A stretch of DNA of 64,000 nt from Candidatus Brocadiia bacterium. Its GTDB lineage: Bacteria > Planctomycetota > Brocadiia > CAIUPP01. Positions 6,104-22,240 of this stretch are shown here, one piece after another. Within the stretch, counting starts at the first letter, position 1. Every line of letters begins with the position of its first letter. The notes beneath the pieces are model-generated. The model made no database searches. It saw only the letters and a program-made list of their open reading frames with translations, and had not been told where the DNA came from. The stretch is taken from positions 1 through 64,000 of the forward strand of contig JBEKCB010000025.1 of assembly GCA_050015075.1 (NCBI GenBank), in the 5' to 3' direction. The position numbers and the translations under genes were made by a program.

Positions 6104-9082
6104 TCAACTCGGGGTTAGCGTGTAGGTGATTCCGTGGACTTCGATCACGAACGTTGACATGCAATCGTACTTGCCGTCGGTGGTTGCCGGAGCGTAGTTG
6201 CCTTCCCAGCCGGCGCCGCCAATCGGAGTTATGCCGAGCCGGACTTCCCAAAGATCGAAGATGACACCTGCGGTGAGGCCATTGCTGAGTTGCGCGGCAA
6301 AGGTGCAGTGGCCTTCGGTCAAAATCAGTGTTCCGCTCGATCCATCCGATCCCGTCAGACGAATACTTGCCGGAGTCGCGCCCGAGCAGGCGTCACAGCC
6401 GACCGGCGAGGTCGGCGGCGAGGTCGGAGCCGACGTGTGCGCCGCGGTATGAGCTGCCGTAGGCGCGGACGTGTGCCCGGCGGTCGGCTCGGAGGTCGCC
6501 CCCGACGTGTGCGCTTCGGTCGGCTCGGACGTGTGCGCTTCGGTCGGCCCCGACGTGTGTTCTTCGGTCGGCGCGCTCGTCGGCGGCGAAGTCGGCGCGC
6601 CGGTGTAGGGCGATGTCGGCGCTGGAGTGCCCGATGGAGTCGTCGCCGGCGGCGTACCCTCCGCCGTCGTCTCCAGAGGCGTCGTGTCGTTCGGTGTCGT
6701 CTCGCCCGGCGTCGTCCCCGGCTCGCTGCCCGGCTCCGTCGAGCCGCGAAGCACGATCCCGTTCAGCTCGAATTGCGTCGTGCAGAAAAGCTCGCAGCCG
6801 ATCTGGCAGCTTGTCTCGCAGGCCCAGCAGCCGCCCGGCGGCATCGCCTCGGCGAGCGTGTCGCAGACGCCGGACGGGAAATACGGGATCTCGGCGCTGA
6901 GCTTGATTCCCGGCACCGCGCGGTTCGATCCGCCGCCGAGCGTGTGCTCGATGCCCACCACGCGCGCGACCTGGCCCGCTCCGAACCAGCCGGCCAGGTC
7001 GAGGTCGAACAGGTCGTACGGTTCCGCGTCGAGCCGCCGCAGCGAGTCCACCAGCGCGATCTGCTGCCAGATGTACTGCCAGCGGTTCAGCCAGAAGTTC
7101 GCCACGCCCTGCACCGGCGCCAGGCTCGCGTACGCCCAGAAGTCAATCGTCTTGGCGATGCGGCCGCCGACGAACTCCTCCGCCGCCGGCGACCGAAGAA
7201 TTATCGTCCGCCGCACCGCGTTGTCAATGTACGAGCCGGTGATCTCCGTGACGATCTGGTTCCATTCCCGGCGCGCGATGTCCAGCGAGCCGAGATAACG
7301 ATCGGCTCCGGACGTCGGCGGCGTGCCGGTTGGGACCATGACGTTGGTCAGGTAGATCAACTGCGCCTGGCCGGCGAAGAAGACCTCGGCGCAACGCGCC
7401 TGGAACGCGAGATCGGCGCAGAGTTCGAGTCCCTTCTTCTGCTCGGTCAGCGCGAAGCCCATCAGCAGCGCCGCCGTCGCCGTCTTCGCCGCGGCGAAAG
7501 AATCGGCGTCAATGTTGTCGCTCGTCATGCCCATCCAGCGCGTGTGGATCGCCTGGATGATGTCGGAGGGATTCTGCAAGAGCGTCCCGGTCCCGTCGCC
7601 GACGCTCTCCACGCCGTCGAGCGTGATCCACAGGTCGTCGTTCTTCATCCGGATATCGAGCTGCGACGGCGGCAGGCTGAACGTGATGCTCGTCACCGCG
7701 CGGCCCGGGCACGTGGCCGTGTCGTTGTAGTTGATCGTGTAGAGCGAAGGATCGAGCGCGAAGTACCATTCCGTCGGCGTCGTCCAGATCTGTCCGTTGA
7801 TCCACAGGCTCAGCGGATGGCCATAGCCCTCGACGCTGTAAACCTTCTTTGAAGGCGCGTCATTGACCACGTAAGTGTAGTTCGAACGCGCGACGTAGAC
7901 CTTCGATCCGCACGGATGTCCGGCCACGTTGCTGCCGATCTGGTACGTCGCGCCGATCGGCAGCGTGTACGTATGGCCGGCGTTCGTGAACGCGTCGCCG
8001 ATCCACGTCGTCTGCGTCGGATCGAGCGGGTTGACGTAGGCGAATCCGCTCAGCATGCCGAAGACGATGGTGTGCGTGGCCGAGTCGTAGCTCTGGATGA
8101 TCTTCCGCTGCACCGTGCCGTCCGGCGACGTGAAGAGAATGTAGTAGCCGACGTAGGTGCCGTCCGGACCGGTGAGCGCGCTGTCCACCAGGTGCTGGCA
8201 ATCCACGCCGAGCGCGGTGACCGTGCCGGTGTAGAGCGGCGCGCCGCGCTCGGTGATGCTGAAGAAGTTGCCGTTGAACTGCCCGTTGATCCGCTCGCCG
8301 CCGATCCAGATCTCCATCGGCGTGAGCTGCGGGAAATACTCCGCGTCGTTCACGTACAGGCCCATGTCGAAGTAGTTGCAGACCCGCGCCAGCTCGGTCA
8401 CCGGCCCGAAATCCACCGCCACCGCGCGCGCACGCATGACGTGGCCGAAGACCAGCGGGATCAGCTTGTTCTCGTCAGTCTGGACCACGTTCGGGCAGTC
8501 CAGCCGGTCGGCGAAATTTCCGACCGTGCGGTTGAAATAGGTCGAGATGTCCGTGATGTCCAGCAGCACCGCGTGGTCCCGCTCGCTCCACGTGCACGGC
8601 GCGTTGATGATGCCGACGTGGAGCTTGACCAGGTCGCTCTCGGCGTTGCCCCGGAACTGCTGATAGATTGCCACCCACGCGCGCTGCGGCTCGATGCTCT
8701 GGAAATAATTGAAGAGGACCTTGTCCTCGTCGCGCAGCTTCACCGTGCAGTCGCCGACGACGTTGACCGCCTTGTCCGCCTTGATCCCGAGCCGCACGAC
8801 GCCCCACTCGAGCACGCGCCCCTGAGCGTTGTCCCAGGACGCCCCATCGCCGGAGCCGAAATCCTCTTGCGCGTACCACTTCACCCCGACCGGCGCGGCC
8901 GGAGGCAGCGTCGGTCCGCCGCTCGTCGTCGCTCCGGTCTCGGAGACCGTCGGCTCGCCCGGCGCAATGAGAATCGGCGCCGTGCTGCCGCCGGCCGCAG
9001 GCCAGGAAATCTGCAGCAGGCAATACGGCTTGCTGCTCTCGGAGTCCGCCGCGGCGATTGTCGAAGATGTTAGTGTGCGCAT
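6104..9082 (-). CDS. Phage tail-tip/baseplate hub-like protein with a C-terminal six-Cys motif and mucin-like stalk
   Basis: Follows the Dit-like gene; IPLVFG and NPSDII motifs typical of tail-tip proteins; TSxPT repeats. Confidence 0.7.
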   Translation of the reverse strand: MRTLTSSTIAAADSESSKPYCLLQISWPAAGGSTAPILIAPGEPTVSETGATTSGGPTLPPAAPVGVKWYAQEDFGSGDGASWDNAQGRVLEWGVVRLGIKADKAVNVVGDCTVKLRDEDKVLFNYFQSIEPQRAWVAIYQQFRGNAESDLVKLHVGIINAPCTWSERDHAVLLDITDISTYFNRTVGNFADRLDCPNVVQTDENKLIPLVFGHVMRARAVAVDFGPVTELARVCNYFDMGLYVNDAEYFPQLTPMEIWIGGERINGQFNGNFFSITERGAPLYTGTVTALGVDCQHLVDSALTGPDGTYVGYYILFTSPDGTVQRKIIQSYDSATHTIVFGMLSGFAYVNPLDPTQTTWIGDAFTNAGHTYTLPIGATYQIGSNVAGHPCGSKVYVARSNYTYVVNDAPSKKVYSVEGYGHPLSLWINGQIWTTPTEWYFALDPSLYTINYNDTATCPGRAVTSITFSLPPSQLDIRMKNDDLWITLDGVESVGDGTGTLLQNPSDIIQAIHTRWMGMTSDNIDADSFAAAKTATAALLMGFALTEQKKGLELCADLAFQARCAEVFFAGQAQLIYLTNVMVPTGTPPTSGADRYLGSLDIARREWNQIVTEITGSYIDNAVRRTIILRSPAAEEFVGGRIAKTIDFWAYASLAPVQGVANFWLNRWQYIWQQIALVDSLRRLDAEPYDLFDLDLAGWFGAGQVARVVGIEHTLGGGSNRAVPGIKLSAEIPYFPSGVCDTLAEAMPPGGCWACETSCQIGCELFCTTQFELNGIVLRGSTEPGSEPGTTPGETTPNDTTPLETTAEGTPPATTPSGTPAPTSPYTGAPTSPPTSAPTEEHTSGPTEAHTSEPTEAHTSGATSEPTAGHTSAPTAAHTAAHTSAPTSPPTSPVGCDACSGATPASIRLTGSDGSSGTLILTEGHCTFAAQLSNGLTAGVIFDLWEVRLGITPIGGAGWEGNYAPATTDGKYDCMSTFVIEVHGITYTLTPS

Positions 9083-9088
9083 TTATCC

Positions 9089-9403
9089 TCACCCCGCCAC
9101 AACGGTTGGAGCAGGACTCTGACCATTGCAGCCAATGAACGTCCACGATCCCACGATGTTGCTCAGAGCGGTTCCGGTCGTAGAGGCCTCATAGAGCGGC
9201 TTCTGATCCGTCAATGTGTTGTCAATCACCCACCTTCCTGACGTGGAATTGTAGTGAAGGTAGATGCCGTTGCTGTTCATCCAGTAGTTCTGGCCATCGT
9301 GAGTCCCGGACTGCCGAGCATAGTTGCCATCTACGTTGGCATTAGCTGATCCGGCGCCTGAAGCGGTGTAGGCGAAGAAGGTTCTGTTGTATCCCACGAT
9401 CAT
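9089..9403 (-). CDS. Small beta-rich tail-associated protein
   Basis: ATGA-coupled to the fibre gene; visibly lower GC than neighbours. Confidence 0.6.
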   Translation of the reverse strand: MIVGYNRTFFAYTASGAGSANANVDGNYARQSGTHDGQNYWMNSNGIYLHYNSTSGRWVIDNTLTDQKPLYEASTTGTALSNIVGSWTFIGCNGQSPAPTVVAG

Positions 9404-11481
9404 GCTCTGACCACCTCCAGGGAAACCGTAACCCTCGTCACCGTGGTCGCGCTGTTCACCTTGAAGGCGATGATGTTGCCGGCGGTGAGGCTCGTGCTCC
9501 AACCGGTCAGCGTCGAGTCCTGGCTCTTCTGCGCGCTCGAGAGCGTCGGCAGGTCGGAGGCCGCGATGGAGGACGTGGTCGGGAATCCCGAATACGTGGA
9601 CGTCTGGACGTCCACGACGATGCTCCCCGACTGGTCCGCCAGCAGCGTCACGCGCTGAATCGTGCAATTGAACGGGATTTCCAGGAATCCCTTCACGCCC
9701 GTCGTGATCGCCGAGCCGCCGCCGTCAATCACGAACTCGATCGCATCCGGAAGGGCCAGCACGTCGTCGCCGCCGGTCAGGTGCGTGCTCTCGTGCGCGG
9801 TCGGCGTCCTCGCGTTGGTCAGCCTCGAATCGGACGATGCCACGATTCCGCCGTGTGCCGTCGTCGTCAAGCCGGCATGCGTGTTCAGGTTGCCCTGCAC
9901 CGTCGCCGCCGCGCCGGCCGCATCGCTCGCGGCTTCAGCCGCGCTTTCCGCAGTCGAGATCGCCGAGCCAAGCGCCGTCCGGACCGCCTTCTCGCTCGGC
10001 ACGTTGCTGTCGCTTCCCGGCGAGCCGACAGTAATGACGAGCGCGCTCGCCGCAATGCTCGCCGCCTCGGCCGCAGACTGCGCCGATGCCGCCGCGCCCG
10101 CCGCGTCGAAGGCGCTGCTGGCCTGGAACGCCGCGGTCCCGAGCGCGCCGCCGTCCTCGAGGGCCTTGCCGGTCGCGTCGGCGAACAGTACGACGTGCCC
10201 GGCCATTGACGAGTCCGGTCCGGTGACATCGCCCGATCCCAAGCCGGAAACGGAGTCCGCGATCGCCGTCCGCACCGCCTTCTCGCTCGGCACGTTGCTG
10301 TCGCTTCCCGGCGAGCCGACAGTAGTAACCAAGTCGGCAATCGGAATGCTCGCCGCCTCGGCCGCAGACTGCGCCGCAGCCGCCGCACCGGAGGCGTCCG
10401 CCCCGACATCGCTCGGACCCAGCGTCACCGCGCCGACTTTGCCGCAGACGCTCGAGACGACCTGCTGGTTGTCTATCCGGTTCCAGGACGCGCCGTTATA
10501 AGTCAACCAGTCGCCCGCGCCGTACGTCGTGCCGCTGATCGTGCCCGCGGCCGAGCAGACCCAATACTGGCCTTTCGCCGGCGATGCCGGATACGAGCCG
10601 CCGGAGCAGTCGAAAGTTCCCTGATAATCCAGCGCGCCGACAATGGCCGCCGGGAGCTGGCTCGTCGGCACCTTGCCGCTCGCATCCAGCGTGGCAACGC
10701 CGCTGTCCGCGCCGGCAGATGTCAGCGGGATGCTCGCCGCCTCCGCCGCGGCCTGGGCCGCAGCCGCCGCGCCGGCGACATCCGCGCCGATGCTCGCCGG
10801 ACTGATCGGATCGGAACCGGTGGATGCGTGCGTCGAGGCGTGCGCGGTCGGCGTCCGGGCGTTGGTGAGCCTCGAATCCGTCGCAGCCACGATCCCGCCG
10901 TGCGCCGTCGTCGTCAGGTCCGCGTGCGCGAGCAGATCGTCTTCAAGCGCGTACTCCGGCGGCGAGGTCGGCGGCGAGGTCGGGCCTGAAGTGCCCGCCT
11001 CGGTCGGCGAACTCGTCGCCCTGCCCGTCGCCGACGAAGTGGAGGCCGATCCGCTGGAAAGGTGCAGCTTGATCGTCAGTTCGTAGAATCCGCCGGAGCG
11101 CACGGTGGTCGCCACCGTGTCGCCGCCGGTGACGAAGCTGCCGGTGGAAGCCGCCTCGTCGGCGACGGTGACCGGAGCGAGCGTCGCGCTGAGGAAATAC
11201 GCCGCCCATGCGACGTTTCGCTCGTCGGTGAACGTGAACTCGTTCAGCGTGCCCTGCGCCTGGTTCTTGAAGAAACTCTGAACGTCGTTCAATTCGCTCA
11301 GGCGCAGGTTCGACCACTTCAACTCGCGCCGCGTGTCCGTCGCGTCCGCCAGCGCGAAGCGGTAGAACCCGCCGCTCGCCTTCGGCTGCACGACCTGGTG
11401 CGGATCGAGATCGAGCTGGTCGTTCAGGTCCGGGTTCTGGACCGTCGCCGTCACGCCGCCGAGAGAAAAGGAAACGCTCAT
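9400..11481 (-). CDS. Distal tail (Dit)-like domain fused to a tail-fibre-like protein
   Basis: N-terminal ...VQSFFKNQAQGTLNEFTFTD; internal duplications (TTTAHGGIVA..DSRLTNARTPTAH x2, GSPGSDSNVPSEKAVRTA x2); GVATLDASGKVP fibre motif. Confidence 0.65.
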   Translation of the reverse strand: MSVSFSLGGVTATVQNPDLNDQLDLDPHQVVQPKASGGFYRFALADATDTRRELKWSNLRLSELNDVQSFFKNQAQGTLNEFTFTDERNVAWAAYFLSATLAPVTVADEAASTGSFVTGGDTVATTVRSGGFYELTIKLHLSSGSASTSSATGRATSSPTEAGTSGPTSPPTSPPEYALEDDLLAHADLTTTAHGGIVAATDSRLTNARTPTAHASTHASTGSDPISPASIGADVAGAAAAAQAAAEAASIPLTSAGADSGVATLDASGKVPTSQLPAAIVGALDYQGTFDCSGGSYPASPAKGQYWVCSAAGTISGTTYGAGDWLTYNGASWNRIDNQQVVSSVCGKVGAVTLGPSDVGADASGAAAAAQSAAEAASIPIADLVTTVGSPGSDSNVPSEKAVRTAIADSVSGLGSGDVTGPDSSMAGHVVLFADATGKALEDGGALGTAAFQASSAFDAAGAAASAQSAAEAASIAASALVITVGSPGSDSNVPSEKAVRTALGSAISTAESAAEAASDAAGAAATVQGNLNTHAGLTTTAHGGIVASSDSRLTNARTPTAHESTHLTGGDDVLALPDAIEFVIDGGGSAITTGVKGFLEIPFNCTIQRVTLLADQSGSIVVDVQTSTYSGFPTTSSIAASDLPTLSSAQKSQDSTLTGWSTSLTAGNIIAFKVNSATTVTRVTVSLEVVRA

Positions 11482-11614: not shown

Positions 11615-12166
11615 TTAAGCTGCCGTGGTCTGTTCCGAACTCGGCTCGTTCGTCGGGTTCGCCGAAGTCCGCTTGGCGACGGTCGGGCGCTCCTCGAAGT
11701 CCTTGAAGGCGACCGCCAGGATGTCGGCGTCGGCTTTTTCGGAGAACGTTTCGTTCAGTTCGTAGCACTTCTCGAAGACGATATCCTCGGCCTGCTCGCC
11801 GGTGATCGGCGAGACGCACGTGAACCGGATGCGGACGGTCCGCACGCCGCCGTCGTTGCTGGTCGAAAGCCAGGAACTCGCCGCGCCGACGCCGAACAGC
11901 GCCTCGTGCGGCGTGACCGGATAGCCCGTCGCGCTGAGGAATTCCTTGAACTTCACCTGGAACTTGCCGCTGCACGGCCTGGCCTTGCCGGCCCGGAGCG
12001 AGCTGAGATCCGTCCGGTCCATGATGGCGACGGACTCGCGCTGGGCCACGTCGAAGCACATGTCGCCTTCGTCCACGACGAGCTGGACGGCGTTGGCCGG
12101 GCTCGACCCGTCCTCGATGGTGATGATCCCATCGGCCATGTTCTTTACCACCGTCTGCTTCGCCAC
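11615..12166 (-). CDS. Putative tail tube protein
   Basis: Size (~183 aa), position, beta-rich sequence; GGAGGTGA RBS before GTG at 12166; ends ...SSEQTTAA. Confidence 0.55.
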   Translation of the reverse strand: MAKQTVVKNMADGIITIEDGSSPANAVQLVVDEGDMCFDVAQRESVAIMDRTDLSSLRAGKARPCSGKFQVKFKEFLSATGYPVTPHEALFGVGAASSWLSTSNDGGVRTVRIRFTCVSPITGEQAEDIVFEKCYELNETFSEKADADILAVAFKDFEERPTVAKRTSANPTNEPSSEQTTAA

Positions 12167-12233
12167 AACTCTCACCTCCAAAAAACGTTTTCACCACTAC
12201 GACCCGACGCGCGCGACGTACGGATTTACCAAC

Positions 12234-12545
12234 CTAGTCTTGCGTCGTGGGTTCGTCAGTCGTGGAGCCGTTCGTCGTGTCCGTAGTGGTGAGTTCCGGC
12301 GTCGTCGCGGCGGCCGGCGTGTTGGCCGAGACGGAGGCGACCAGCGCGGCCTTGTTCGTCGCCATCTGGTTCGCCAGCGACTGGATCTGGGCCTGCAGCG
12401 CCGCGACCGACTGGGCCGGCTGAGAGGCGACCGTCTGGAGCTGCGCGGTGAGCTGGTCGAGGAGCGCTTCGGCGCTCGCATCCACCGTCGTCTCGGCCGC
12501 CACAGCCTGAATGATCGGGGTAAGATCAATGCTGACCGTTGCCAT
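12234..12545 (-). CDS. Small coiled-coil phage protein with a Thr-rich tail
   Basis: AAGGAG RBS; Ala/Gln helix, then TTPELTTTDTTNGSTTDEPTTQD. Confidence 0.65.
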   Translation of the reverse strand: MATVSIDLTPIIQAVAAETTVDASAEALLDQLTAQLQTVASQPAQSVAALQAQIQSLANQMATNKAALVASVSANTPAAATTPELTTTDTTNGSTTDEPTTQD

Positions 12546-12717
12546 AGCACCAACTCCTTCCATCAAAAAGAGGATCCGTTCCACCTTCCTTCGGTCACTG
12601 CGCTTGAACACGGTACGCTCCGCGACGATGGACTATGGACGATAGACCACGCGCGGCAATCGTCCATCGTCTATCGTCCATCGTCTGCCTCCATCGTTTC
12701 TCGTCCATCGTCGCCGC

Positions 12718-12933
12718 TCACTTCGGCGCCGCCGGCGGCGAAGCGGGCGGCACAGCCGCCTTCGGCTTGAACAGCGCGATCAGCCCGACCAGCTTCGCCC
12801 AGATCCACGAGATGATGGCGCCGATCTTCGCCAGGACGTGGTCCGCGAGCACCTGGTGCAGCGCGGCGAGGATCCCGAGCACGACGCTGCTCAGCACGCA
12901 GCCGAGCAGGAACGCCACGATCAGTTGCAGCAT
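12718..12933 (-). CDS. Small membrane protein (holin-like)
   Basis: GGAGG RBS before ATG at 12933; two hydrophobic segments in 71 aa. Confidence 0.55.
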   Translation of the reverse strand: MLQLIVAFLLGCVLSSVVLGILAALHQVLADHVLAKIGAIISWIWAKLVGLIALFKPKAAVPPASPPAAPK

Positions 12934-12989
12934 CGTCGGCCTCCATTTCACAGGACGATTGACCATGGACGATGGACGATCGTCAGTGG

Positions 12990-13500
12990 CTAAAACTGCG
13001 CCTTTTGCGTCAGCACCAGCAGCGGCGCTCCGAGCATCAGGCCCAGAAGAATCACGCACACGATCAGGTCCGACCACCAGTTCAGGTCCAGCTTCCCCAG
13101 CAGGACGATAAGGAGCACACCCAAGCATTCGCAGCCGCCAACTGTCAGAAACTTCAGCCAGCCAGGACTCAAACCGAAACTGCACCTGCGTCAGAGACGC
13201 AATGCTTCCTTTCACCTGGTCGCGGAACTGGTCGGTGTCCTGCGAGGACTTCTGGATCGCATTGATGATCGCCGTGTTCTGCTGCGCGAGCGAGAGGACC
13301 TGCGCCTGGACGTCCTTGAGCGTCGAGGCGGTGGTCGAGTCCGGAGCGACCGTCTGCGCCGCCTTCTGCGCCGGCGCGGACGAACAGCCGACGGCCAAGA
13401 TCACCGCAGAGGCGCAGAGGACGCCGAGAGCGGCGAAACGCCTCAAGGCCTGATTGCCAGAACTTTCCGTCTCCGCGTTCTCCGCGTCTCTGCGGTGCAT
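12990..13500 (-). pseudogene. Lipoprotein/coiled-coil/transmembrane protein with an apparent frameshift near 13177
   Basis: Lipobox ILAVGC and coiled coil; removing one T from CAGTTTCGGTTTG joins it to the 2-TM ORF 12990-13172. Confidence 0.5.
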
Positions 13501-13512
13501 CGCCGCCTCCTT

Positions 13513-13989
13513 TCAAGAAATCCTGAACTTGCAGACCATCGTCGTCGTGAACTGCCAGAGTTCGATGTGCTTCTGCAGGGCGATCTTCGGCGCGTAGGAC
13601 GGGTTCGCGTACTCCGCCTCGGCGAACGTCGCCCCGAGGCCGAAATTGTCCGCCTGGAACTGCCGGCTCATGAAGTCCTCGAAGCCTTCGGCGAGGTCCA
13701 CGATACGGCGCGAGTCCTCGCCGGCGGTCGCCATCTCGATCAGGAACGCGGTCCGGCGCTCGAGTACGGCCGCCGGGCCGCGCTTGCACTTCGCCGGCGG
13801 CCAGTGATGCAAGTCCTCCGCCGGCCCCATCGCGAAGACCGGGCAGACCGCTGGCATGATCTCCATGCGCGTCAACACGCCCTGGCCGTTGAACCGGAAC
13901 ATCGTTCCGCCCTTCAGCAGCGCGGACATCGCGGAGTCGGCCTGCAGGCGGCTCCAGACGGCGTTCAAGACATCGGTCGAAAGGCCCAT
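13513..13989 (-). CDS. Tail completion/terminator-like protein
   Basis: AVWSRLQADSAMSALL N-terminus; lies between the gp36-like gene and the tail genes. Confidence 0.55.
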   Translation of the reverse strand: MGLSTDVLNAVWSRLQADSAMSALLKGGTMFRFNGQGVLTRMEIMPAVCPVFAMGPAEDLHHWPPAKCKRGPAAVLERRTAFLIEMATAGEDSRRIVDLAEGFEDFMSRQFQADNFGLGATFAEAEYANPSYAPKIALQKHIELWQFTTTMVCKFRIS

Positions 13990-14030
13990 CAGAATCTCTC
14001 CCAAAGCCGAGTGCGAATCCGGTGCGGCAT

Positions 14031-14456
14031 TCAAAAACCACGAGTCTGGCGGCGCGTGAACTGCCGCCGGCGGCCGGAGGCCTTTGCGCCGTGGAAGCGG
14101 TCGCCGCGGTCGTCGGCCTTCGGCTCGCCGAGCGACGCCTGGCCCTGGCCGACTTGCTCCAGGAACGCCACGTCGCGGTCATAACCGTTCTTCACCTCGT
14201 CGGGCAGCGACTGCCGGCCGAGGTACAGGTAGTACAGCGCCAGGCGGACGGCGATGCTCAGCAGCATCGGCGGCACGGTCGCCAGCGGCAGCGGATACTG
14301 CGGCGAGATCAAGCCGTCAATCAGCGACGACGCCTGGTCGCACGCGGCCTGCAGGACCGTGTTGTTCGGCGAGCCGGTCCCGCCCAGGTCGCTGAGTTGC
14401 GTCAGTTCGGCGGTGGTCTTGACGTTCGCCAAGTCAGTCGGAGCGCAATAGCTCAT
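14031..14456 (-). CDS. Mu gp36-like head-tail connector (DUF1320)
   Basis: MSYC..DL...EL.QL, ASSLIDG...YPLPL..VP..L...A..LALYYLY, Y...FLEQV..G..SLG pattern. Confidence 0.85.
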   Translation of the reverse strand: MSYCAPTDLANVKTTAELTQLSDLGGTGSPNNTVLQAACDQASSLIDGLISPQYPLPLATVPPMLLSIAVRLALYYLYLGRQSLPDEVKNGYDRDVAFLEQVGQGQASLGEPKADDRGDRFHGAKASGRRRQFTRRQTRGF

Positions 14457-14539
14457 CGGTTACTCCATTGCGGATTTCGGAATGCGGACTGCGGAATTCA
14501 ATCCGCAATCCGCACTCCGCACTCTGCACTCTGCACTCG

Positions 14540-15481
14540 TTACGCCGCGGTCGTCGGGGCGCCGGAAGTGCCCTGCGAGCCGTAGGCGAGCCACCACGCG
14601 ATGGCCTTCACTGCGCCGCGGTAATCCATGCCGAAGTCGAAGCGCTTCTGGTAGAAAACGTTCGGGTCGTCGAGCTTCACCATCGGCGTCAGCGCCAGCG
14701 GCCGGCGCACCTGGTTGACCACCGGCTTGATCGGCTTCGAGCAGTCCAGCATCATCCACTGGTTGCCGGTCCACATCGGCATCTTGATCTGGTTCTCTTT
14801 CGGGAACTTCCCGTAGAGCGTCTGGCTGATCTGGCTGGAGTTGGCCAGCGGCACGTTGAAGAGCTGGTCCACGGCCTGCTCCAGCGCCGGCGAGAACAGG
14901 AAGTGCGTCGGCTGGACCAGGAGCACGATGCCGTCCGGTCCGACGAAGGTGCTCATCTGCTTGATGCCCGCGTAGACCGCCGCGGCCGAGAGGTATGCCG
15001 TCGTCAGGTTCGACTGCGGAGCGCCGGCGGCGCCTTTCATCCCCTGCCAGACGTGCGAGCTGGAGAAGAACGGCACGCCGTCGAAACCGACCGACTCGGC
15101 GAAGGCGCCGACGCCGAGTTCGTCCTGCACCTGCAGCCACGGCTCGAGCACGCCGAGCGCGGCCTGCTGCTGGATCGCCAGCGCGTATGCCCCCGTCACG
15201 TCGTCCTCGATGTCCTCGCGCGGCACGCCGATCGTGTGCTCGAAGGTCAGGTTGCGGACGCTCGCCTCGAACGCGGCCAGGTCCTGGATCACGCGGTCCT
15301 TCACCCACTCGCGCATGCGTCCGGTCAGCGCGGCGACCGGGTAGTGCTCGATGCGCGTGGACGACGGCACCGCCGAGGCGATGTCGTCAATCCGGGTCTT
15401 CGTGCGCTCGAGCGTCTGCTGAAAAATGGTGTTGAACGACACCCACAACGCCTCCAGCGTTGCGGCATTGACTACTGCCAT
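14540..15481 (-). CDS. Mu-like major capsid protein (gpT family)
   Basis: VPSST..EHY...MREWV.DR, FEHTIGVPREDIEDD..G.Y, FDGVPFFS..H, W.MLD.SKPIKP, W.LAYGS; AGGAG RBS. Confidence 0.92.
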   Translation of the reverse strand: MAVVNAATLEALWVSFNTIFQQTLERTKTRIDDIASAVPSSTRIEHYPVAALTGRMREWVKDRVIQDLAAFEASVRNLTFEHTIGVPREDIEDDVTGAYALAIQQQAALGVLEPWLQVQDELGVGAFAESVGFDGVPFFSSSHVWQGMKGAAGAPQSNLTTAYLSAAAVYAGIKQMSTFVGPDGIVLLVQPTHFLFSPALEQAVDQLFNVPLANSSQISQTLYGKFPKENQIKMPMWTGNQWMMLDCSKPIKPVVNQVRRPLALTPMVKLDDPNVFYQKRFDFGMDYRGAVKAIAWWLAYGSQGTSGAPTTAA

Positions 15482-15571
15482 TGCGTCATCTCCTAAAAAA
15501 ATTCCTGTGCTACACAATCGGCAATCGGCATTCCTGTCGCGCAAGCGCGACACGGGCAATCTGCAATTCCG

Positions 15572-16024
15572 TTAGGCCGCCGTCGTCGGCGCACTGGTCA
15601 CCGGCAGCGCCGGCTCGACGTACGCGCCGCGCATGTCCACCAGCACTCCGTATCGGTCCACCGACTTGATGCGGCCCGCATACGTGTTCGTGCCGGCGGT
15701 CAGCGTCACGGTGTGATCGTCGGCGAAGTACGCCGGCTGGCCGACGCTCGCCTGCGTCAGCGTCGCGGCCGAATCCCAGTACGCGGCCTCCGGCGTGATG
15801 ATCTCCACGGTCTCAGCGCCGGCCGCGCCGGCGGAATTGTCCACCGTCTCGTCGGCGATGCCGCGGAAATGCCTCACGCCCGGGCCGGCCGGAACCGCAA
15901 AGCCGCCCGAGTTCAGCCCCACCGCGGCGCCGTTGAAGATCTGCGTCGCGGCGGCCACGGGCGCCTCGTCGCGGTGCAGCTCGTCCACGAACTCCGTGTC
16001 CCGATCCGACGTCAAGTTGCTCAT
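15572..16024 (-). CDS. Capsid cement/decoration protein
   Basis: PVAAAT.IF.GA.V...G.AVP, GIADETVDN..GAAG, VGQPAYFADDHTV; lies between protease and capsid. Confidence 0.8.
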   Translation of the reverse strand: MSNLTSDRDTEFVDELHRDEAPVAAATQIFNGAAVGLNSGGFAVPAGPGVRHFRGIADETVDNSAGAAGAETVEIITPEAAYWDSAATLTQASVGQPAYFADDHTVTLTAGTNTYAGRIKSVDRYGVLVDMRGAYVEPALPVTSAPTTAA

Positions 16025-16075
16025 GCGACTGCTCCTAAAAAAGAGACCATTGACCATAGACGACAGACGATGTCC

Positions 16076-17350
16076 TTACCCAACCATCCGCCGCTTCGTC
16101 GCCAGGAACTCCGCCTCCTTCAGCCCCGCCTGCTCGCAGGCCCAGCGGTCGGCGTCGGAGAGGACCGGCGTCTCGGCGGCGGCCTGGGCGCCGGCGGCGC
16201 TCGTCGCGCCTCCGAGCACCGGCGGCATGCTGTTGAGGATTTCCCGTGCGCCCTCGAAGTCCTGCATCGCCAGCCGGATGAACGCCTCCCGGTTCGCCGG
16301 GGTGATCTTCCGCTCGACGGAGATCGCGTTCTCGATGAGCTTCTCGGCCGCCGACTGCGCCGGCATCGCCCGGCTCGCGCCGATCAGCGCCAGCAGCTCG
16401 GCCAGCGGCCTGTCCGGCGTCGCGCCGAGCGCGTTGCAGATCGAGAGCAGCTTCACATCCGCATCGCTCGTAGAGGCGCCGTCAGGCGCTACTTTGAGCT
16501 TGTCGAGTGCCGCCTTGATCGCGGCCTCGTCGGCCGTCTCCGCCACGCCGAGCGAGCTGGCGAAGACCTTCACCTGGATGGACGCGCGCGTGCCGGCGTC
16601 CATCAGGGTCATGAGCGCTCTGCCGATTACGTCCGCCTTGGCGTCTTCCGCGACGCCCAGGCTGTTGGCGACGGTCTTCGCGTCAAGCGCGGGAGCGCCT
16701 GCGCGCCCCTCGTTCATGGCCGCCGCCAGCAAGGCGAGCAAATTCTGCATGGCTCCGCCCTCCTCTTCTGCGACGGCTGAATCGGGAGCGCCGGTGCGCT
16801 CCTCTGCCAATCCGGCGGCGGCGGCGTCGCTGTTCGCCACGGCCGGAAGCGCCTTCTTGAACGGACGGTTCGTCAGCGCCACGGAATCGAGCACCCACCG
16901 GATGATCCGGCCGGTGACCGGGTCCTTGTAATCCTTCAGCAGGTGCGAGCTGAGGTAGCGGAATTTCCTCTCGCGGATCAGCGCGCGCGCGTCGGCCACC
17001 CACTTGATGTGCGCCCACAGTTCGGTATCGTTGTTCCGCCCTTCGAGGGAATTGATCCAGCCGCCGGACTCGGCGCTCTTGCCGAGCAGCTTGGCGACCA
17101 CGCCCTGATGCTCGTAGTCCACCGGCAGGTCCACGCCGTTCGCGCGGCAGGCCTGGTTGAAGTACTCGACGATGCAGCGGATGTCCGCCGGCGTCAACCG
17201 GTACGCGCCGGCCGGGTGGCCTTCCCACTCGCCTTGCAAATCCACCTGGTACCAGCCTTCGGCCGGGACGCCGTTCGGCCCTGAGCTCACGTCCGAAGGG
17301 TCGGCGGGAAGCGCACCGGCGGAGTTGCTGAGCTGTTCCCGGTTTTCCAT
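16076..17350 (-). CDS. Mu-like prohead protease/scaffold (gpI)
   Basis: LPVDYEH, GWI..LE, LWAHIKW, RYLS, SVALTNRP motifs; helical scaffold C-terminus. Confidence 0.9.
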   Translation of the reverse strand: MENREQLSNSAGALPADPSDVSSGPNGVPAEGWYQVDLQGEWEGHPAGAYRLTPADIRCIVEYFNQACRANGVDLPVDYEHQGVVAKLLGKSAESGGWINSLEGRNNDTELWAHIKWVADARALIRERKFRYLSSHLLKDYKDPVTGRIIRWVLDSVALTNRPFKKALPAVANSDAAAAGLAEERTGAPDSAVAEEEGGAMQNLLALLAAAMNEGRAGAPALDAKTVANSLGVAEDAKADVIGRALMTLMDAGTRASIQVKVFASSLGVAETADEAAIKAALDKLKVAPDGASTSDADVKLLSICNALGATPDRPLAELLALIGASRAMPAQSAAEKLIENAISVERKITPANREAFIRLAMQDFEGAREILNSMPPVLGGATSAAGAQAAAETPVLSDADRWACEQAGLKEAEFLATKRRMVG

Positions 17351-17352
17351 GG

Positions 17353-18795
17353 TCAGTCACCCGCCTTTCCATCGGTTGTCGTCGCGGAAGACGCGTTCGT
17401 CCGATCCGCCGCAATCGGCGCCAGCACTTCCTCGCCGTCGGCAGGCGCGGGAATCCCGAACTTCCTCCGCGCCCATTTCGCCGGCACGCGCAGCCCGACA
17501 CTGACGAGCGTCAAGACGCTCGTCGCCAGCCGCTGCAAGTCCACCGGCTCCTCGACCAGCGTGCGATAGACCGGCGCGGCGACCTCCGGCCCGAAGTTCA
17601 GCAGCGTGATCGGCCCGAAGAACTGCCGGTTCAGCGTCTCGTCGAGCGCCCGCGCGTCCGAATCCACCAGGTCGAAGCGCACCGCCTCGTGCGCCCGGCC
17701 GCTGTACCCGAGCGTGTGCCCTTCGCCGTTGCCGCCGGTGAACGTCTGGCCGAGCACCGCAAGCGCCATCTCCTCGCCCGCGCGCTGGCGCAACTGGTCG
17801 TACATCGCGCCGTCGCTCGACGCGCGCGCCGCGTCGGCGAACGTGATCTTTCCGCCGGCGGGCACCATCCCCGCCGCCGCGCTGCCGAGGGACGTCAGCG
17901 CGCGCCACATCAGGTCGGCGTCCTCCTGCGTCGCGCCCGGCGGCAACTCGCCGAGGCGGACGGGAATCCCGCAGAGTTCCGCCAGTTGCAGCCAGTCGCG
18001 TAGCGCGTAGTTGCGAACCAGGAACGGTCGCGCGCAGGCGAGCGAAATGCCGCCGCGCTGGAGCGATCCGCTGAGCGCGTTGTGCCGGTGGAGAATGAAA
18101 TTGAACGGGTTCACCGGCAGCCCGAGCGGCGCCGATACGTCGCGCAGGAGCAGCTTCTGCCGGTCCACCAGGTCGAGCGTCCACCAGCGCTGCGGGCGGA
18201 ACTTCAGGTCGCTCGGCAGCCACTGCCGCTGGCTGGTCTCCCAGAGGATTTCGAGGCAGGCGAATCCCTTGGCGACCGCGTCGAGCAGGTCGCGGAGGCG
18301 GTCGCTCCAGGACTGGATGCGTCCGAGGCGCTTGCCGTCGGGCGCGGGCAGCAGCGCGGCGCAGAAATCGCGCGCCCGGAGCGATGCGCTCGAATCGTCG
18401 CCCGGCTCCAGCGCGAACTCGCAGCTCGTCACGCCCGCCTTGCGCTGCGTGAAGAGGCCGGAGAGGCGCGCGTCGCGCTCCTCCATCGCCTCGAACAGCT
18501 CCATCTGGTGGAGGATGTTGCCCTGCTCGGCCTCGCGGAGCAGGTTCACCAGGCGCGCCGGGGTCAGCAGATCGGCGACGGTATTCGCCATGTAATACCG
18601 CCAGCCGCCGAGCGTGGCCGGGGCGATCTCGCGCGTCTCCGGCTTCGTGTACGGCTTGCCGTACTGATCGAGGATCGCGTGCGGATCGCGCATTGCGGCC
18701 GGCTGCGGCTGCTGCCGTTCGGCGCTGCTCACGGCAGGCAGGCCATACTTGTCGAGGCCGGTCGGCAGCATCGTCATCAGCGTGACATCGCTCAT
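17353..18795 (-). CDS. Mu gp29-like portal protein (DUF935)
   Basis: L.EAEQG....Q.ELFE.MEERD, DLLDAVAKGF..LEI.W, DW...AE..GIPVRLG, AVLGQT, AHE.VR.DL..SDA. Confidence 0.92.
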   Translation of the reverse strand: MSDVTLMTMLPTGLDKYGLPAVSSAERQQPQPAAMRDPHAILDQYGKPYTKPETREIAPATLGGWRYYMANTVADLLTPARLVNLLREAEQGNILHQMELFEAMEERDARLSGLFTQRKAGVTSCEFALEPGDDSSASLRARDFCAALLPAPDGKRLGRIQSWSDRLRDLLDAVAKGFACLEILWETSQRQWLPSDLKFRPQRWWTLDLVDRQKLLLRDVSAPLGLPVNPFNFILHRHNALSGSLQRGGISLACARPFLVRNYALRDWLQLAELCGIPVRLGELPPGATQEDADLMWRALTSLGSAAAGMVPAGGKITFADAARASSDGAMYDQLRQRAGEEMALAVLGQTFTGGNGEGHTLGYSGRAHEAVRFDLVDSDARALDETLNRQFFGPITLLNFGPEVAAPVYRTLVEEPVDLQRLATSVLTLVSVGLRVPAKWARRKFGIPAPADGEEVLAPIAADRTNASSATTTDGKAGD

Positions 18796-18842
18796 CGAAG
18801 AATCCCTCAGCAATTAACTTCCGGCTCCTCGCTCGCTCTCCC

Positions 18843-18991
18843 GATTATAAGGGTGAAATTCCGCTCCGGAGCCGCGCGACAAAGTGAGTGCGCTTGCGAG
18901 TGGTTTCAGTGCGCTTCGGAGTGGTTTGAGTGCGCTTCAGTGCGCTTCGCAGCGGTTTCAGTGCGCTTATTTTCGCGAGCTGGATTTGACA
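18843..18991 (-). promoter_or_regulatory. Phased-repeat late promoter, copy upstream of the portal gene
   Basis: Five AAGCGCACT boxes (spacing 21/21/10/21) and TATAAT at 18844-18849; twin at 22092-22240. Confidence 0.75.
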
Positions 18992-19046: not shown

Positions 19047-20732
19047 TCATTCATCATTCTGCCCTCTGACTTCCAAGCCTCCGCCTCCCGCGAACGCGAC
19101 GGCGAAATTGTTGCGCGGCTGAAGGCGCATCAGCGGCTCGCGCGGTTTTCCGCCGGGGCGGGAATCCGTGAAAAGCCGGCGCGCCATCTCAAAAGCGTCC
19201 GGGCCGTCGTCGTGGACGCCCGGCTTGCCGAAATCGAGGAACTGGTCGAGCAGCAGCCGCTGATCGCCCTCGCCCTCGTCGAAATAACAAAGGCCCCGCT
19301 CGAAGTCGGGCTGCAAGGAAAGGATCCGGTCCTCCTTCGAGGCGGCGTTCGTGACCGGGAACAGCCCGACCCGGTTCACGCGCCCGCGGATCTCCTCATT
19401 CGCCTCGAGCAGGGGCCAGAGGAACGCCTGGAAGCCGTTCGCCTCGCAGCCGATGCGGCCGGGCGAGAAGGCGTCGTACACGCGGAGGATCTCCGCGATC
19501 AGTTCGTTGGGCGAGGCGCGGCGCAGCCAGGCGTGGAGGCAGCGCAGCTCGCGCGTGCCCCGCGGCCGCGCCAGGACGACGAGCGCCTTGTAGTCGCTGG
19601 TCTCCTTCGCCGTAGCGCTCGGGTCCACGGCCGCGCGGACCTCGGCGGTCGAGCGGTCGAACTCCGCCGCGCGAAAATCGCGCACCCAGTCCGGGCGGAA
19701 TACCTCGTCGTCGGAAAACGACTTGCCGAGCATCTCGCGGCCGTAGAGCCCGCGCCCCATGATCGCGGACATGCGCCGGAGGACGGCGGTCGGAAAACGC
19801 TCCGGCCAGGCGGATTCGCCGCGCTCGTCCTCGGCCAGGTACTCGACGTAGCGGCAGATCGGCCGGCCGGCCGCATCGCGCTGCGCGGCGGCTTCCTGGA
19901 AGCGCGCCTTCAGGCCGTGGCGCGTGCCATAGTTGTTCAGCAGGATCTCGCACCACGCGCCGCCGGTATTCACCGCAGAGGCGCGGAGGTCGCGGAGTGT
20001 TTCACCAGGAATAGGTTTTCCGTCTCCGTGCAGTTCTCCGCGTTCTCTGCGTCTCTGCGGTGAAACCGCGTGCTCAACGGAGAGCGCGGGGAAGACGTTG
20101 CCGAAGAGCCATTCCCAGAGATGCTTTTCGCGCTGCGGGTTCCGCGCGAGGAAGTCGTCCTCCAGGTCGTCGCCGAGAAAATCGTCCGGCCGGTGTGGGC
20201 CGTGGAGCAGGCCGCGGCAGGATTGCCCCGTGCCGCGCGCGAGCACGCGCGTCTCGACGGCGACAAAATCCGTGTCGGTGTCGCTGCCGCCGCGCGGGCC
20301 GATCCGGTCGCCGTAGTCCCGGCGCAGTCGCTGGTTGTTGACCAGTTCCAGCTTGATCAGGTCGAGCTTCTCCGCCGCGTTCTCCTCGGTCTGGCCGCCG
20401 ACGATGATGAAATGCGCCCGGCGTTCGACGATCCGCCGGACGCGCCGCAGCAGCGCGCGCGTCGTCTTGCCGGCGCCGCGGAACCAGTACTCGGCGATCG
20501 GGATGCCCTTCTCCTCGACGATCTCGTCGGCCGCCAGGTGCAGGGGCGAGGACTCGCAGAAGATGTAATGCGGGAAGTAGGCGTGGATCCACGCGTCGAA
20601 CGGCAGCGCCCGGCGCGCAGCGATTGCCTTGTGGGACGAGTCCTCGAACGGCCGCGCCTCGCGCAGCACGGCGGCGAGAATCCTTCCGCGCTGCGCCTCA
20701 TAAGCCTTTGTCCAGCGGTCAGCCACGTTCAC
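19047..20732 (-). CDS. Terminase large subunit
   Basis: FRGAGKTT (Walker A), RGL.HGPHRPD...DDLEDD (Walker B), AAVDPS..DY.A, EANGFQ, KEDRI, HDDGPDA nuclease motifs. Confidence 0.92.
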   Translation of the reverse strand: MNVADRWTKAYEAQRGRILAAVLREARPFEDSSHKAIAARRALPFDAWIHAYFPHYIFCESSPLHLAADEIVEEKGIPIAEYWFRGAGKTTRALLRRVRRIVERRAHFIIVGGQTEENAAEKLDLIKLELVNNQRLRRDYGDRIGPRGGSDTDTDFVAVETRVLARGTGQSCRGLLHGPHRPDDFLGDDLEDDFLARNPQREKHLWEWLFGNVFPALSVEHAVSPQRRRERGELHGDGKPIPGETLRDLRASAVNTGGAWCEILLNNYGTRHGLKARFQEAAAQRDAAGRPICRYVEYLAEDERGESAWPERFPTAVLRRMSAIMGRGLYGREMLGKSFSDDEVFRPDWVRDFRAAEFDRSTAEVRAAVDPSATAKETSDYKALVVLARPRGTRELRCLHAWLRRASPNELIAEILRVYDAFSPGRIGCEANGFQAFLWPLLEANEEIRGRVNRVGLFPVTNAASKEDRILSLQPDFERGLCYFDEGEGDQRLLLDQFLDFGKPGVHDDGPDAFEMARRLFTDSRPGGKPREPLMRLQPRNNFAVAFAGGGGLEVRGQNDE

Positions 20733-20814: not shown

Positions 20815-21069
20815 TCACTCCTCGCCCAGCGTCGCACGAAGCTCCTGCTTCTTCTTCAGCGCGCTGATGTACGCCTGGCGCGCGTCTCGGACGTCGGCCA
20901 CGGCGGCCTCGACCACGTCGAGGTCAATGTCCATCGGCGAATTGAACAGCACTGTCGCCCGGCTGACGTGCCGGACCGCGTCGGCGGCGCGCTCCGTCGC
21001 GCGCTTCATGTCCGTATCGCACGCCGAAATTTGCCGCCGGATTTCAAGTTGCATCGCAATGTCTGCCAC
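20815..21069 (-). CDS. Small helical phage protein
   Basis: GAGG RBS; 84-aa ORF between the terminase genes. Confidence 0.6.
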   Translation of the reverse strand: MADIAMQLEIRRQISACDTDMKRATERAADAVRHVSRATVLFNSPMDIDLDVVEAAVADVRDARQAYISALKKKQELRATLGEE

Positions 21070-21119
21070 AATTTTTCCTCACCACGACGGGCACGACGGG
21101 ACACGACGAAAAGTAAACC

Positions 21120-21563
21120 TTATGAGTGCTTGCGCCGCTGTTCATCGAGGAACTGCTCGGTCCACTTGTAGAGCACCGCACACTCCTCCGACTCGGCGCG
21201 CGCGCCGACGAACTGCGCGAAACGCTCGAGCGTGTCGAGCATCGGCCCGATCGCCTCGACGTGCGACTCCAGCCTCTCGACGAGCAGCGTGATCTTGTTC
21301 AGCGCCTCAAGCGCCTCTGGGGTGGCCGCGGCCTTCTTGCCGACGGCGTCCATATGGAACTGGCGCTGCTTCTTGAGGATATCGAGGGCGGCCCGCGGCG
21401 ACTCGTACTGCCACTCCAGCCGTTTCCTCATCCAGTCGGCCTTGCTCGACCACCGGGCCAGCGTACGCCGGCTAAAGCCCGTCTGAAGAGCAATCTCGTC
21501 AAGGGTTTTCACCTCGCGCACGAAAAGATGCTCAGCCGTCCGGCGGACCTCCTGCAGATTCAT
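21120..21563 (-). CDS. Terminase small subunit (HTH, Mu gp27/DUF1804-like)
   Basis: AEHLFV.....LDEIA..TG.SRRTL.RW....DW; upstream of terL. Confidence 0.75.
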   Translation of the reverse strand: MNLQEVRRTAEHLFVREVKTLDEIALQTGFSRRTLARWSSKADWMRKRLEWQYESPRAALDILKKQRQFHMDAVGKKAAATPEALEALNKITLLVERLESHVEAIGPMLDTLERFAQFVGARAESEECAVLYKWTEQFLDEQRRKHS

Positions 21564-21594
21564 CGCGCGCTCCCGAAAAAAACTCGGACCGTTC

Positions 21595-22002
21595 CTACAG
21601 GATGTGCAGCAGGCCCAGGAACCACGCCAGGCCTTTGCCGACGATCACGAGCGCGACGATGATGTAGACCGCCAGCACCGCCTTCTCCAGCTTCGCGAGG
21701 CGTCGGAAGATTTCCTTGAAATCCTCGCCGCCCTTATCGAGAGTGCGGTCCAGCTCGCTGCGCTCCTTGGCGATCTGCGCGGCCACCTCCTTCGGCAGTG
21801 CGACCACCAGCTCGCGCAGCTCGCCCACGAGCCGTTCGAGCGCCGCGTACTCCGCCGAGGCTTTCTGCTTGAACCCCTCGAACTCGATCTTGATCCGCGA
21901 GAGATTGATGCAATACGCCTCCGGCGGGCACCGACGGCGCTCCGGCCCGGCGTAATCCGCCGCGCGGTGGTTGTCAGCGTCGAGCGGAGCGTCATGTGGC
22001 AT
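21595..22002 (-). CDS. Coiled-coil protein with C-terminal TM helix (first gene of the module)
   Basis: AAGGAG RBS; YAGPERR motif; C-terminal hydrophobic helix. Confidence 0.65.
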   Translation of the reverse strand: MPHDAPLDADNHRAADYAGPERRRCPPEAYCINLSRIKIEFEGFKQKASAEYAALERLVGELRELVVALPKEVAAQIAKERSELDRTLDKGGEDFKEIFRRLAKLEKAVLAVYIIVALVIVGKGLAWFLGLLHIL

Positions 22003-22091
22003 CAATAACTCCTTCCAGGCTTTGGAGCACCCTCTGCACCCGCCTTCGCTAAAGCTACGGCGGGCAAGCTCTGCACTCATGAAGCTCTCTG

Positions 22092-22240
22092 GATTATAAG
22101 GCCGTATTTTCGCCGCGATGGCCGCAGTGAAAGTGAGTGCGCTTGCGAGCGGTTTCAGTGCGCTTCGCAGCGGTTTGAGTGCGCTTGAGTGCGCTTCGGA
22201 GCGGTTTCAGTGCGCTTATTTTCGCGAGCTGGATTTGACA
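22092..22240 (-). promoter_or_regulatory. Phased-repeat late promoter, copy at the start of the module
   Basis: Same five boxes and spacing as 18843-18991; TATAAT at 22093-22098. Confidence 0.75.

Follow-up and report, generated by a model that had tools for sequence, protein, structure and literature searches.

The first 64 kb of the 82.8-kb contig JBEKCB010000025.1, from a Candidatus Brocadiia genome of 4.64 Mb in 66 contigs, is the stretch of DNA analysed here (the window). From its start to about position 22240 the window holds a phage structural operon on the minus strand, on which all gene coordinates given below lie, and three unrelated virion proteins of this operon end alike. The major capsid protein (14540-15481) ends GTSGAPTTAA, a putative decoration or minor capsid protein (15572-16024) ends PVTSAPTTAA and a protein with a tail-tube fold (11615-12181) ends SSEQTTAA. 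The PTTAA of the capsid is encoded by 14543-14557, directly before the stop codon, that of the decoration-like protein by 15575-15589, and the TTAA of the tube by 11618-11629. At the tail end of the operon the tube gene is followed, in order, by genes for proteins of 693 and 992 residues, a two-domain glycosyltransferase (GT721), a second glycosyltransferase of the GT2 type (p428), a protein of 262 residues (p262) and a radical SAM/SPASM enzyme. An earlier note on this DNA had taken the shared endings for acceptor tags of glycosyltransferases encoded in the same operon, and it is this proposal that is weighed here.

The shared ending is far beyond chance. Genome-wide, a TTAA or [ST]T[AG]A ending was found in 3 of 14,592 open reading frames (ORFs) of at least 100 residues, all three in this cluster, and the same three genes make up the 3 of 3,282 ORFs with this ending that passed a crude coding filter. 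TTAA occurs 46 times anywhere in 1,294,861 positions, which corresponds to about 0.12 expected C-terminal cases, and the probability that at least three of 17 genes end in TTAA is about 3e-11. The codons that specify the tag differ among the capsid, decoration-like and tube genes, which argues that the likeness is kept or selected at the peptide level and does not reflect a copied DNA segment. The common terminus that the earlier note had seen on a capsid, a "cement" and a tail-tube protein is therefore real, and the three carriers are non-homologous, as had been stated, i.e., a gpT capsid, a phrog_1731 protein and a tail-tube fold belong to unrelated families.

The capsid protein (313 residues) is of the HK97-type and matches the Mu gpT family (Pfam PF10124, Mu-like_gpT, 9.9e-49); its solved relatives include 9jod_A (E 4.5e-66) and 8rkc_A (E 4.1e-62). 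The ORF of the decoration-like protein spans 15572-16057 with a likely start at the Met at 16024, giving 150 residues, and it matches phrog_1731 "virion structural protein" (4.9e-34), a profile that ends at residue 142 of 161. Its gene lies between those of the protease and the capsid, a position like that of JBD30 gp39 as described in part of PMC11445458. The "cement" label draws on this PHROG category and on gene position only; no solved relative was found by single sequence or by profile. For the 188-residue protein, family searches gave no match in favour of the tail-tube label, and it is the fold that bears the label out. The AlphaFold2 model (pLDDT 91.6) has its best Foldseek match in 8gtb_A (E 1.2e-4), and the top matches are the solved tubes of the siphophages R4C, Sf11, T5 and lambda and of injection systems (probability 1.00, TM-score 0.47-0.65). 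A small coiled-coil-like protein of 125 residues (12234-12611), for which family searches found no family, has a T-rich acidic tail of about 25 residues ending TTQD. This tail, which had also been pointed out before, is kept in relatives as TTAD (L003), TTAG (L015) and TTQD (L046), and from its sequence the protein is possibly a fourth tagged protein. The portal, which had been put forward as a further carrier, was dropped from the tagged set because its T-run is not conserved in relatives.

In all three families the distant homologues end earlier, which shows that the tails are extensions, and the alignments suggested earlier for this purpose agree in this respect for decoration, tube and capsid alike. 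Fifteen distant homologues of the decoration-like protein (31-43% identity) end GVWVxI followed by 0-11 residues, most of them by 0-4 (alignment A7), and so stop about 19 residues before the end of the window protein. The tube family gave 204 matches at E ≤1e-3, mostly 160-170 residues long and covering query residues ~10-170. Among the best 70 of these 204, for which C-termini were inspected, most end PTIAK plus 1-5 residues, and six have T/S-rich tails ending in A/G-A or AE (P0032, P0033, P0034, P0037, P0095, and P0099). The C-terminal extension of the tube amounts to 16-18 residues. Distant gpT capsids end AYGS-xGxGS or otherwise. A scan with a 12-row tube alignment (A4) returned 15 viral loci, none of them with a tagged tube, and when the tube profile was run across the phylum, 13 of 20 genomes of one family proved to hold untagged homologues.

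Close relatives, i.e., metagenome loci and one metagenome-assembled genome at 65-98% identity, keep the tag. The [ST]T[AG]A ending is present in all seven complete close capsids, in six of seven decoration proteins (L010 has a different long extension) and in three of four tubes, the fourth of which ends TTAE, while the residues before the tag vary. The PTTAA unit is duplicated in the capsids of L008 and P0007 (PTTAAPTTAA) and in the decoration protein of L006. As TTAA and TTGA forms are mixed within single phages (L006, L015), the signal appears to be loosely P-T-T-[A/G]-A at a free end.

That the operon encodes glycosyltransferases, as proposed in the earlier note, is borne out, and the first of them is specifically similar to polypeptide GalNAc-transferases (ppGalNAc-Ts). 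GT721 (4086-6101; 671 residues from a conserved Met; PF00535, 1.8e-17) consists of a Cys-rich N-terminal part of about 100 residues, a ppGalNAc-T-like GT-A domain at residues ~102-428 with D181-x-H183 and H329, and a second GT-A or nucleotidyltransferase-like domain at residues ~440-666. With the single sequence as query, all eight PDB matches were ppGalNAc-Ts (E 0.04-0.6). With the family profile the top 15 of 24 matches were ppGalNAc-Ts (E 9.4e-8 to 2.3e-3), followed by dolichol-phosphate-mannose synthase (7.9e-3), and in the profile alignment FLDAH of GT721 falls on FLDSH of the ppGalNAc-Ts. The family alignment shows no variation at D181, H183 or H329, the last of which lies in an invariant WHLFRG. 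The top Foldseek matches of the GT721 model were GalNAc-T2, T1, T4, T10, PGANT9, and TgGalNAc-T3 (E 4e-11, ~340 columns, 20-22% identity), and VIA-align, which is independent of Foldseek, ranked GalNAc-T1 (Z 19.9, 268 aligned, root mean square deviation 4.3) and TgGalNAc-T3 (Z 19.9, 281 aligned, root mean square deviation 5.0) above the next entry at 15.0. A ppGalNAc-T-like first enzyme fits with a peptide Thr as acceptor. The second domain (4086-4790) matches sugar-1-phosphate nucleotidyltransferases about as well as GT-A enzymes (GlmU N-domain, Z 14.9), and judged from the model its task might be synthesis of the donor nucleotide sugar and not elongation of the glycan.

The start of the p428 gene (3202-4089, ~295 residues) overlaps the GT721 stop codon. 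The protein is a diverged GT2 enzyme with no direct Pfam match; homologues at 31-41% identity carry PF00535, and GT2 clusters of the ESM Atlas score 0.98. A scan for p428-like proteins gave 15 viral loci, most of them without structural genes, in which the C-terminal endings have no clear pattern. The 262-residue protein p262 (2307-3095; Atlas score 0.95) has viral clusters as its Atlas neighbours, 34% with PF00535 or 10% with GT34, and is possibly a third GT-A-like enzyme, a candidacy to be treated as a lead. The order GT721, p428, p262 and radical SAM enzyme is kept in the congeneric genome G402 at 73-77% identity, with p262 at 76%. A transmembrane-like segment is absent from GT721, p428, and p262; in GT721 the maximal 19-residue hydropathy is 1.39 and no window reaches 1.6. 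The glycosyltransferases of the operon are accordingly predicted to be soluble.

A second lineage, family f107 of the same bacterial class as the window host, combines tags with related enzymes. A gpT-type element was found in 13 of its 25 searched genomes, with capsids 24-31% identical to that of the window. All 12 phrog_1731 homologues of these elements (11 of 11 at a stricter E-value) have a T-run followed by an A/G ending, such as EPTTTTTAAA or APTTTTTAGA. Tags of this kind are carried in G420 by two decoration paralogues, by the capsid (ASATTAAA) and by a tube (APTTTAAATTTGA), and this tube comes from a different family (PF18906) than that of the window. Elsewhere in f107 the tag is seen on a 121-residue protein, on a beta-helix protein and on several tail-region proteins without assigned function. 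Of nine fetched elements, seven have a GT721-like gene at a distance of 6.3-11.4 kb downstream of the capsid start; on the other two the contig breaks off 6.5 and 3.2 kb past that start, so that the gene is present in all seven that reach far enough. The enzyme of G411 aligns with GT721 residues 108-332 (BLASTP 9e-10), with DAH and HL[FY]R conserved. Three PF00535 genes occur in a row in G411, G407, and G412, in G412 with a gene for a PF13578 methyltransferase among them. No match to the radical SAM enzyme was found in the f107 elements.

In control gpT loci from Proteobacteria, Lentisphaerae, Omnitrophota and others, TT was found in the last eight residues of none of 44 capsids and none of 25 decoration homologues; one control capsid ends GSTGA without an extension. 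Likewise, 25 control loci extend 10.4-10.9 kb beyond the capsid start, and in none of them did tblastn give a match like GT721, p428, p262 or the radical SAM enzyme. Of ten genomes with untagged gpT prophages, seven had no match to the GT721 domain anywhere and three had only weak N-terminal matches at other places. Equal frequency of the tails in homologues lacking glycosyltransferases, which the earlier note had named as evidence against its proposal, was thus not seen. Instead tag and glycosyltransferase co-occur in the window clade and in the deeply diverged f107 lineage, and neither was found in the other gpT loci searched, in line with the link between them that had been suggested.

The element itself is a prophage of a peat bacterium. 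At its upstream end lie three small genes, one of them weakly similar to DUF1804 (20815-22080), followed by the large terminase (19047-20732; PF17289), a Mu-type portal (17353-18813; PF06074, 3.9e-82), a gpI protease/scaffold (16076-17350; PF10123, 4.7e-35), the decoration-like and capsid genes, and a gp36 adaptor (14031-14456; PF07030, 2e-27). By Pfam, portal, gpI, gpT capsid and gp36 stand in the order of a Mu-like (gpT-type) head module; a phrog_38 match (6.6e-54) also falls among the gpI, portal and terminase products. Beyond the terminase and the three small genes, where a transposable Mu-like phage would have transposase A/B and early genes, there are host-type genes instead. Those to the right of 22240 include a Gfo/Idh/MocA oxidoreductase and a GH16 protein. 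Similarity to relatives ends at about 22240 and the adjoining genes differ between related genomes, from which it follows that the element is mobile. Its left end runs off the contig start. Three genes without assigned function lie between the adaptor and the tube gene. Strongly hydrophobic segments occur in two operon proteins, those of 12718-13500 (KD19 2.81) and 21595-22080 (KD19 2.48), and the former (260 residues), encoded between the genes for head completion and that for the tube, is a candidate for a holin-like role or for that of a short tape measure.

A 157-nt direct repeat, with copies 85% identical, is present at 18835-18991 in the gap between portal and terminase and at 22084-22240 at the right edge of the element. 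Related copies lie on nine other contigs of the genome, the first copy matching 12 places, and the relatives L046 and L004 have the repeat at both corresponding positions. It could be a repeat dispersed in the host genome, a phage end or a regulatory element. An EF-hand protein with S/T/A-rich segments (295-795; PF13202, 1.8e-7) is encoded beyond the radical SAM gene, near the contig start. A deletion derivative without the tail and glycosyltransferase genes occurs on one metagenome contig (P0012), where an in-frame fusion joins the N-terminal two thirds of a related capsid gene to a C-terminal portion of the radical SAM gene. Two further related sequences (P0009 and P0011) appear frameshifted. 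Single-copy tube-family genes in 13 of 20 genomes of family f6, as well as the gpT-type elements of f107, represent a prevalence that is unusually high for prophages, and they could be domesticated particles resembling gene transfer agents.

The two large tail proteins follow directly on the tube. No tail chaperone or tape-measure gene lies between the tube gene (ending at 11615) and the Dit-like gene (starting at 11481), and the same is true of close relatives; distant viral relatives carry a gene for a ~175-residue chaperone and one for a 775-866-residue protein at that position. The 693-residue protein (9400-11481; PHROG tail and virion structural families), a tail or fibre protein, has a Dit-like N-terminal part of about 150 residues and an S/T/P linker, TSSPTEAGTSGPTSPPTSPP, and is homologous to a protein of 140-145 residues that follows the tape measure in L076, L078, and L083. 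The 992-residue protein (6104-9082), a distal tail protein, contains a conserved Cys cluster and after it a long T/P/S-rich linker that is hypervariable; in distant viral contigs the genes of its homologues come after the one for the Dit-like protein. The T/P/S/E-rich hypervariable linkers of both products have 12-nt periodic repeats in their DNA, and the tail-protein linker differs strongly among relatives while its flanks are conserved. These linkers may be further glycosylation sites or plain spacers.

The operon is closed by the radical SAM/SPASM enzyme (970-2397), which is of the peptide-maturase class. Its family scores are PapB-like 2e-47, nif11-like 4e-46, SCIFF-like 3e-37 and CXXX-repeat-target family 1.8e-10, all below the family cut-offs. 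Residues 752-767 of the 992-residue protein form a C-x2-C-x3-C-x3-C-x3-C cluster just before the T/P-rich linker, and the cluster is kept in L003, L004/5, and L046. In distant viral relatives the homologous tail protein ends in Cys-rich or CXXX repeats, with a radical SAM gene alongside in L076/L077, and CXXX repeats also form the C-terminus of two tube homologues (P0055, P0081). A cross-link like those of ribosomally synthesised and post-translationally modified peptides may be made inside a virion protein.

It is probable, in our judgement, that the shared C-terminal tags are acceptors for O-glycosylation and give rise to a glycan-coated virion. According to this proposal the late operon would supply structural proteins and enzymes together in the cytoplasm, where soluble, prophage-encoded enzymes would meet flexible tags on proteins that are assembled or assembling. 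The N-terminal GT-A domain of GT721, with its D-x-H...H metal site, would transfer the first sugar from a nucleotide sugar to the hydroxyls of the tag Thr residues, and the second domain, p428 and perhaps p262 would extend or supply the glycan. The tag consensus would be P-T-T-[A/G]-A-COOH in the window clade, with longer T-runs in the sister lineage. With hundreds of copies of the capsid, decoration and tube subunits, the outcome would be a glycan brush over head and tail. The tags would lie exposed on the surface of the particle, and the phage might benefit through shielding, stability or adhesion.

Several points weigh against this proposal. The AlphaFold2 model of GT721 is moderate (mean pLDDT 59.7; 60-89 in the glycosyltransferase domain) and the family alignment is shallow, with 16 close homologues and one at 40%. 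GT-A enzymes are versatile, so likeness to ppGalNAc-Ts is no proof of a peptide acceptor, and Pfam detected GT2 families but no lectin domain in GT721. The extreme C-terminal position and the terminal [A/G]-A are not explained by the known acceptor preferences of ppGalNAc-Ts, and prophage glycosyltransferases beside tail genes often modify host surface glycans. The tagged tubes from other metagenomes (P0033, P0034, P0037, P0095, and P0099) could be placed in no genomic context, and scans of viral contigs with P0033, P0034, and P0095 found nothing. In f107 the capsid is untagged in 12 of 13 elements, as is the tube of G411, and the GT721-like protein of G411 taken alone has no PDB match at E ≤0.1. 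The controls detect GT721-, p428-, and p262-like genes only, and within ~10.9 kb of the capsid start. Finally, both lineages infect one bacterial class and tag and enzyme may have been inherited together, in which case the association rests on few independent events.

The enzymes could instead be lysogenic-conversion (moron) genes that alter host surface glycans, for instance to block superinfection, with the tails serving as unmodified bristles or spacers. Conversion genes often sit near the end of the tail module, as in gtrABC-type systems, and the enzymes of the window do occupy its distal end, next to fibre-like genes. Moreover GT2 enzymes mostly use lipid-linked or polysaccharide acceptors, and transfer to protein is here a matter of inference. 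This explanation is nevertheless considered unlikely, as the three proteins lack a membrane segment, no flippase or GtrC-like membrane partner was seen, and GT721 matches ppGalNAc-Ts five orders of magnitude better than dolichol-phosphate-mannose synthase, which has the GtrB-like fold. It also leaves unexplained why tag and GT721-like gene occur together in two deep lineages and neither was found in the other gpT loci searched. There is a slim chance that a general O-glycosylation system of the host modifies the tags and that the phage enzymes elaborate the glycan or act otherwise. In many bacteria the host's own systems glycosylate T/P/S-rich linkers, and such linkers are present inside the large tail proteins of the element too. 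On the other hand no other ORF of the host genome ends [ST]T[AG]A, which indicates that the host itself makes no use of the terminal tag, and the tag co-varies with a phage-borne enzyme of the initiating type.

A role of the terminal T-A-A-COOH as a signal for a protease, an unfoldase or an assembly factor, i.e., a weak ssrA-like degron or a docking peptide, would account for the strictly kept extreme C-terminal position and for last two residues that are nearly always A/G then A, and the tmRNA tag of the host, AETHYSLAA, likewise ends AA. The variants TTAE, TTAAH, TTQD, TTAGV, and TTPGG, by contrast, keep the Thr run and change the terminal residues, while Thr runs of 4-7 and duplicated PTTAA units better fit modification at several sites. 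With the linked ppGalNAc-T-like enzyme also left unexplained, the chance that the ending is such a signal seems very slim. That the radical SAM/SPASM enzyme modifies the tags is scarcely credible. It is conserved in the element and belongs to a class that matures peptides; its thioether-forming relatives need Cys, the tags have none, and for this reason action on the tags was set aside. The Cys cluster of the 992-residue tail protein is a better candidate substrate, and the f107 lineage has tags and glycosyltransferases in elements that gave no match to this enzyme. None of these alternatives explains the linkage of the tags with a peptide-type transferase.

If glycosylation of the tags is accepted, a wider picture can be drawn, which may well be correct and which we stop just short of calling probable. 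Widespread and hitherto unrecognised prophages of Planctomycetota-type bacteria would use a soluble relative of the ppGalNAc-Ts that reads a portable Thr tag on capsid, decoration, tube and fibre, and would build mucin-like virions. This would be the first virion glycosylation outside actinobacteriophages and would place in a prokaryotic virus a relative of an essentially eukaryotic enzyme family, with a bearing on the origin of mucin-type glycosylation. It would furthermore provide a minimal, genetically encoded glycosylation tag of ~5 residues together with a soluble cytoplasmic enzyme, which could be of use in glyco-engineering, and a signature, i.e., shared Thr-rich C-termini plus a GT721-like gene, by which glycosylated phages could be found in metagenomes.

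Several known systems resemble parts of this arrangement. In gtr-type serotype conversion, GT2 enzymes of temperate phages are encoded near the tail or attachment end. The gtr systems use lipid carriers and membrane partners and act on the host O-antigen, whereas the window enzymes are predicted soluble proteins that most resemble enzymes acting on peptides, and they are encoded beside tagged virion proteins. The pilin systems work in the periplasm with an oligosaccharyltransferase and a lipid-linked donor. Type IV pilin of Pseudomonas undergoes C-terminal O-glycosylation, as passages of PMC11445458 relate. There a structural subunit that polymerises bears its glycan on or close to the very C-terminus, as would be the case here, but the pilin enzyme is not a cytoplasmic GT-A enzyme. 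Chlorovirus glycans are attached at internal sites. These giant DNA viruses encode the glycosylation of their own capsid proteins, according to part of PMC4691112. The likeness is that a virus brings its own glycosyltransferases for the major capsid protein, independent of host machinery; the differences are that chloroviruses infect eukaryotes, have different capsid folds and share no C-terminal tag.

For GT721 itself the closest comparison is with the ppGalNAc-Ts (CAZy GT27), which initiate mucin-type O-glycosylation on Thr in Pro/Thr/Ala-rich peptides. They are the best match of residues ~102-428 in both sequence and fold, with the D-x-H motif aligned; H329 lies after a region weakly aligned to GalNAc-T2 residues 224-268. 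The proposed acceptor would be similar too, a Thr in an unstructured peptide rich in Pro, Thr and Ala. GT27 enzymes have a type II membrane anchor. GT721 has neither such an anchor nor a ricin-type lectin domain, and instead a Cys-rich N-terminus and a second domain; the identity is only 16-22%, and the setting is the bacterial cytoplasm as opposed to the Golgi.

The system as a whole is most readily compared with that of the mycobacteriophages. Virion glycosylation of Che8, Corndog, and Myrna, with the glycans in O-linkage on the capsid and tail-tube C-termini and with little sign of glycosylated phage particles beyond mycobacteriophages, was reportedly described by Freeman et al. (2023, Cell Host Microbe 31:1216). 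For Che8 it is treated as established in parts of PMC11256854 and PMC12363180. Apart from the mycobacteriophage work, the literature searched contained no report of glycosylated phage virions, and none of a phage ppGalNAc-T-like enzyme. As in Che8, where three annotated enzyme genes stand in a row, a glycosyltransferase gene cluster is phage-encoded, and unrelated capsid and tube proteins share a terminal motif (KTGS and SDGS at the ends of the Che8 capsid and major tail protein), so that phage glycosyltransferases and a putative common C-terminal acceptor region on capsid and tube are found together in both. A methyltransferase is associated in both cases as well, in Che8 as gp108 (PF13578 plus PF00535), in f107 as the PF13578 gene of G412 and in P0209 as a fusion.

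The differences from Che8 are nonetheless considerable. The Che8 enzymes are a GT2 plus methyltransferase protein, an unassigned protein and a GT25 enzyme, whereas the candidate for initiation in the window is ppGalNAc-T-like. BLASTP of gp108-110 against the window proteins gave E ≥1.4 for the enzyme pairs, with only the Pfam-level GT2 assignment shared with gp108, and the window system is therefore analogous and not orthologous. The tag is PTT[A/G]A or a T-run as against GS, a decoration-like protein is tagged in addition, the host is of the Planctomycetota-type phylum and the particle has a head of Mu gpT type. The locus and the second deep lineage suggest that one solution, a short and portable tag at the C-terminus of unrelated virion proteins combined with transferases encoded by the phage, has arisen, or persisted, with unrelated enzymes in peat phages of a distant phylum.

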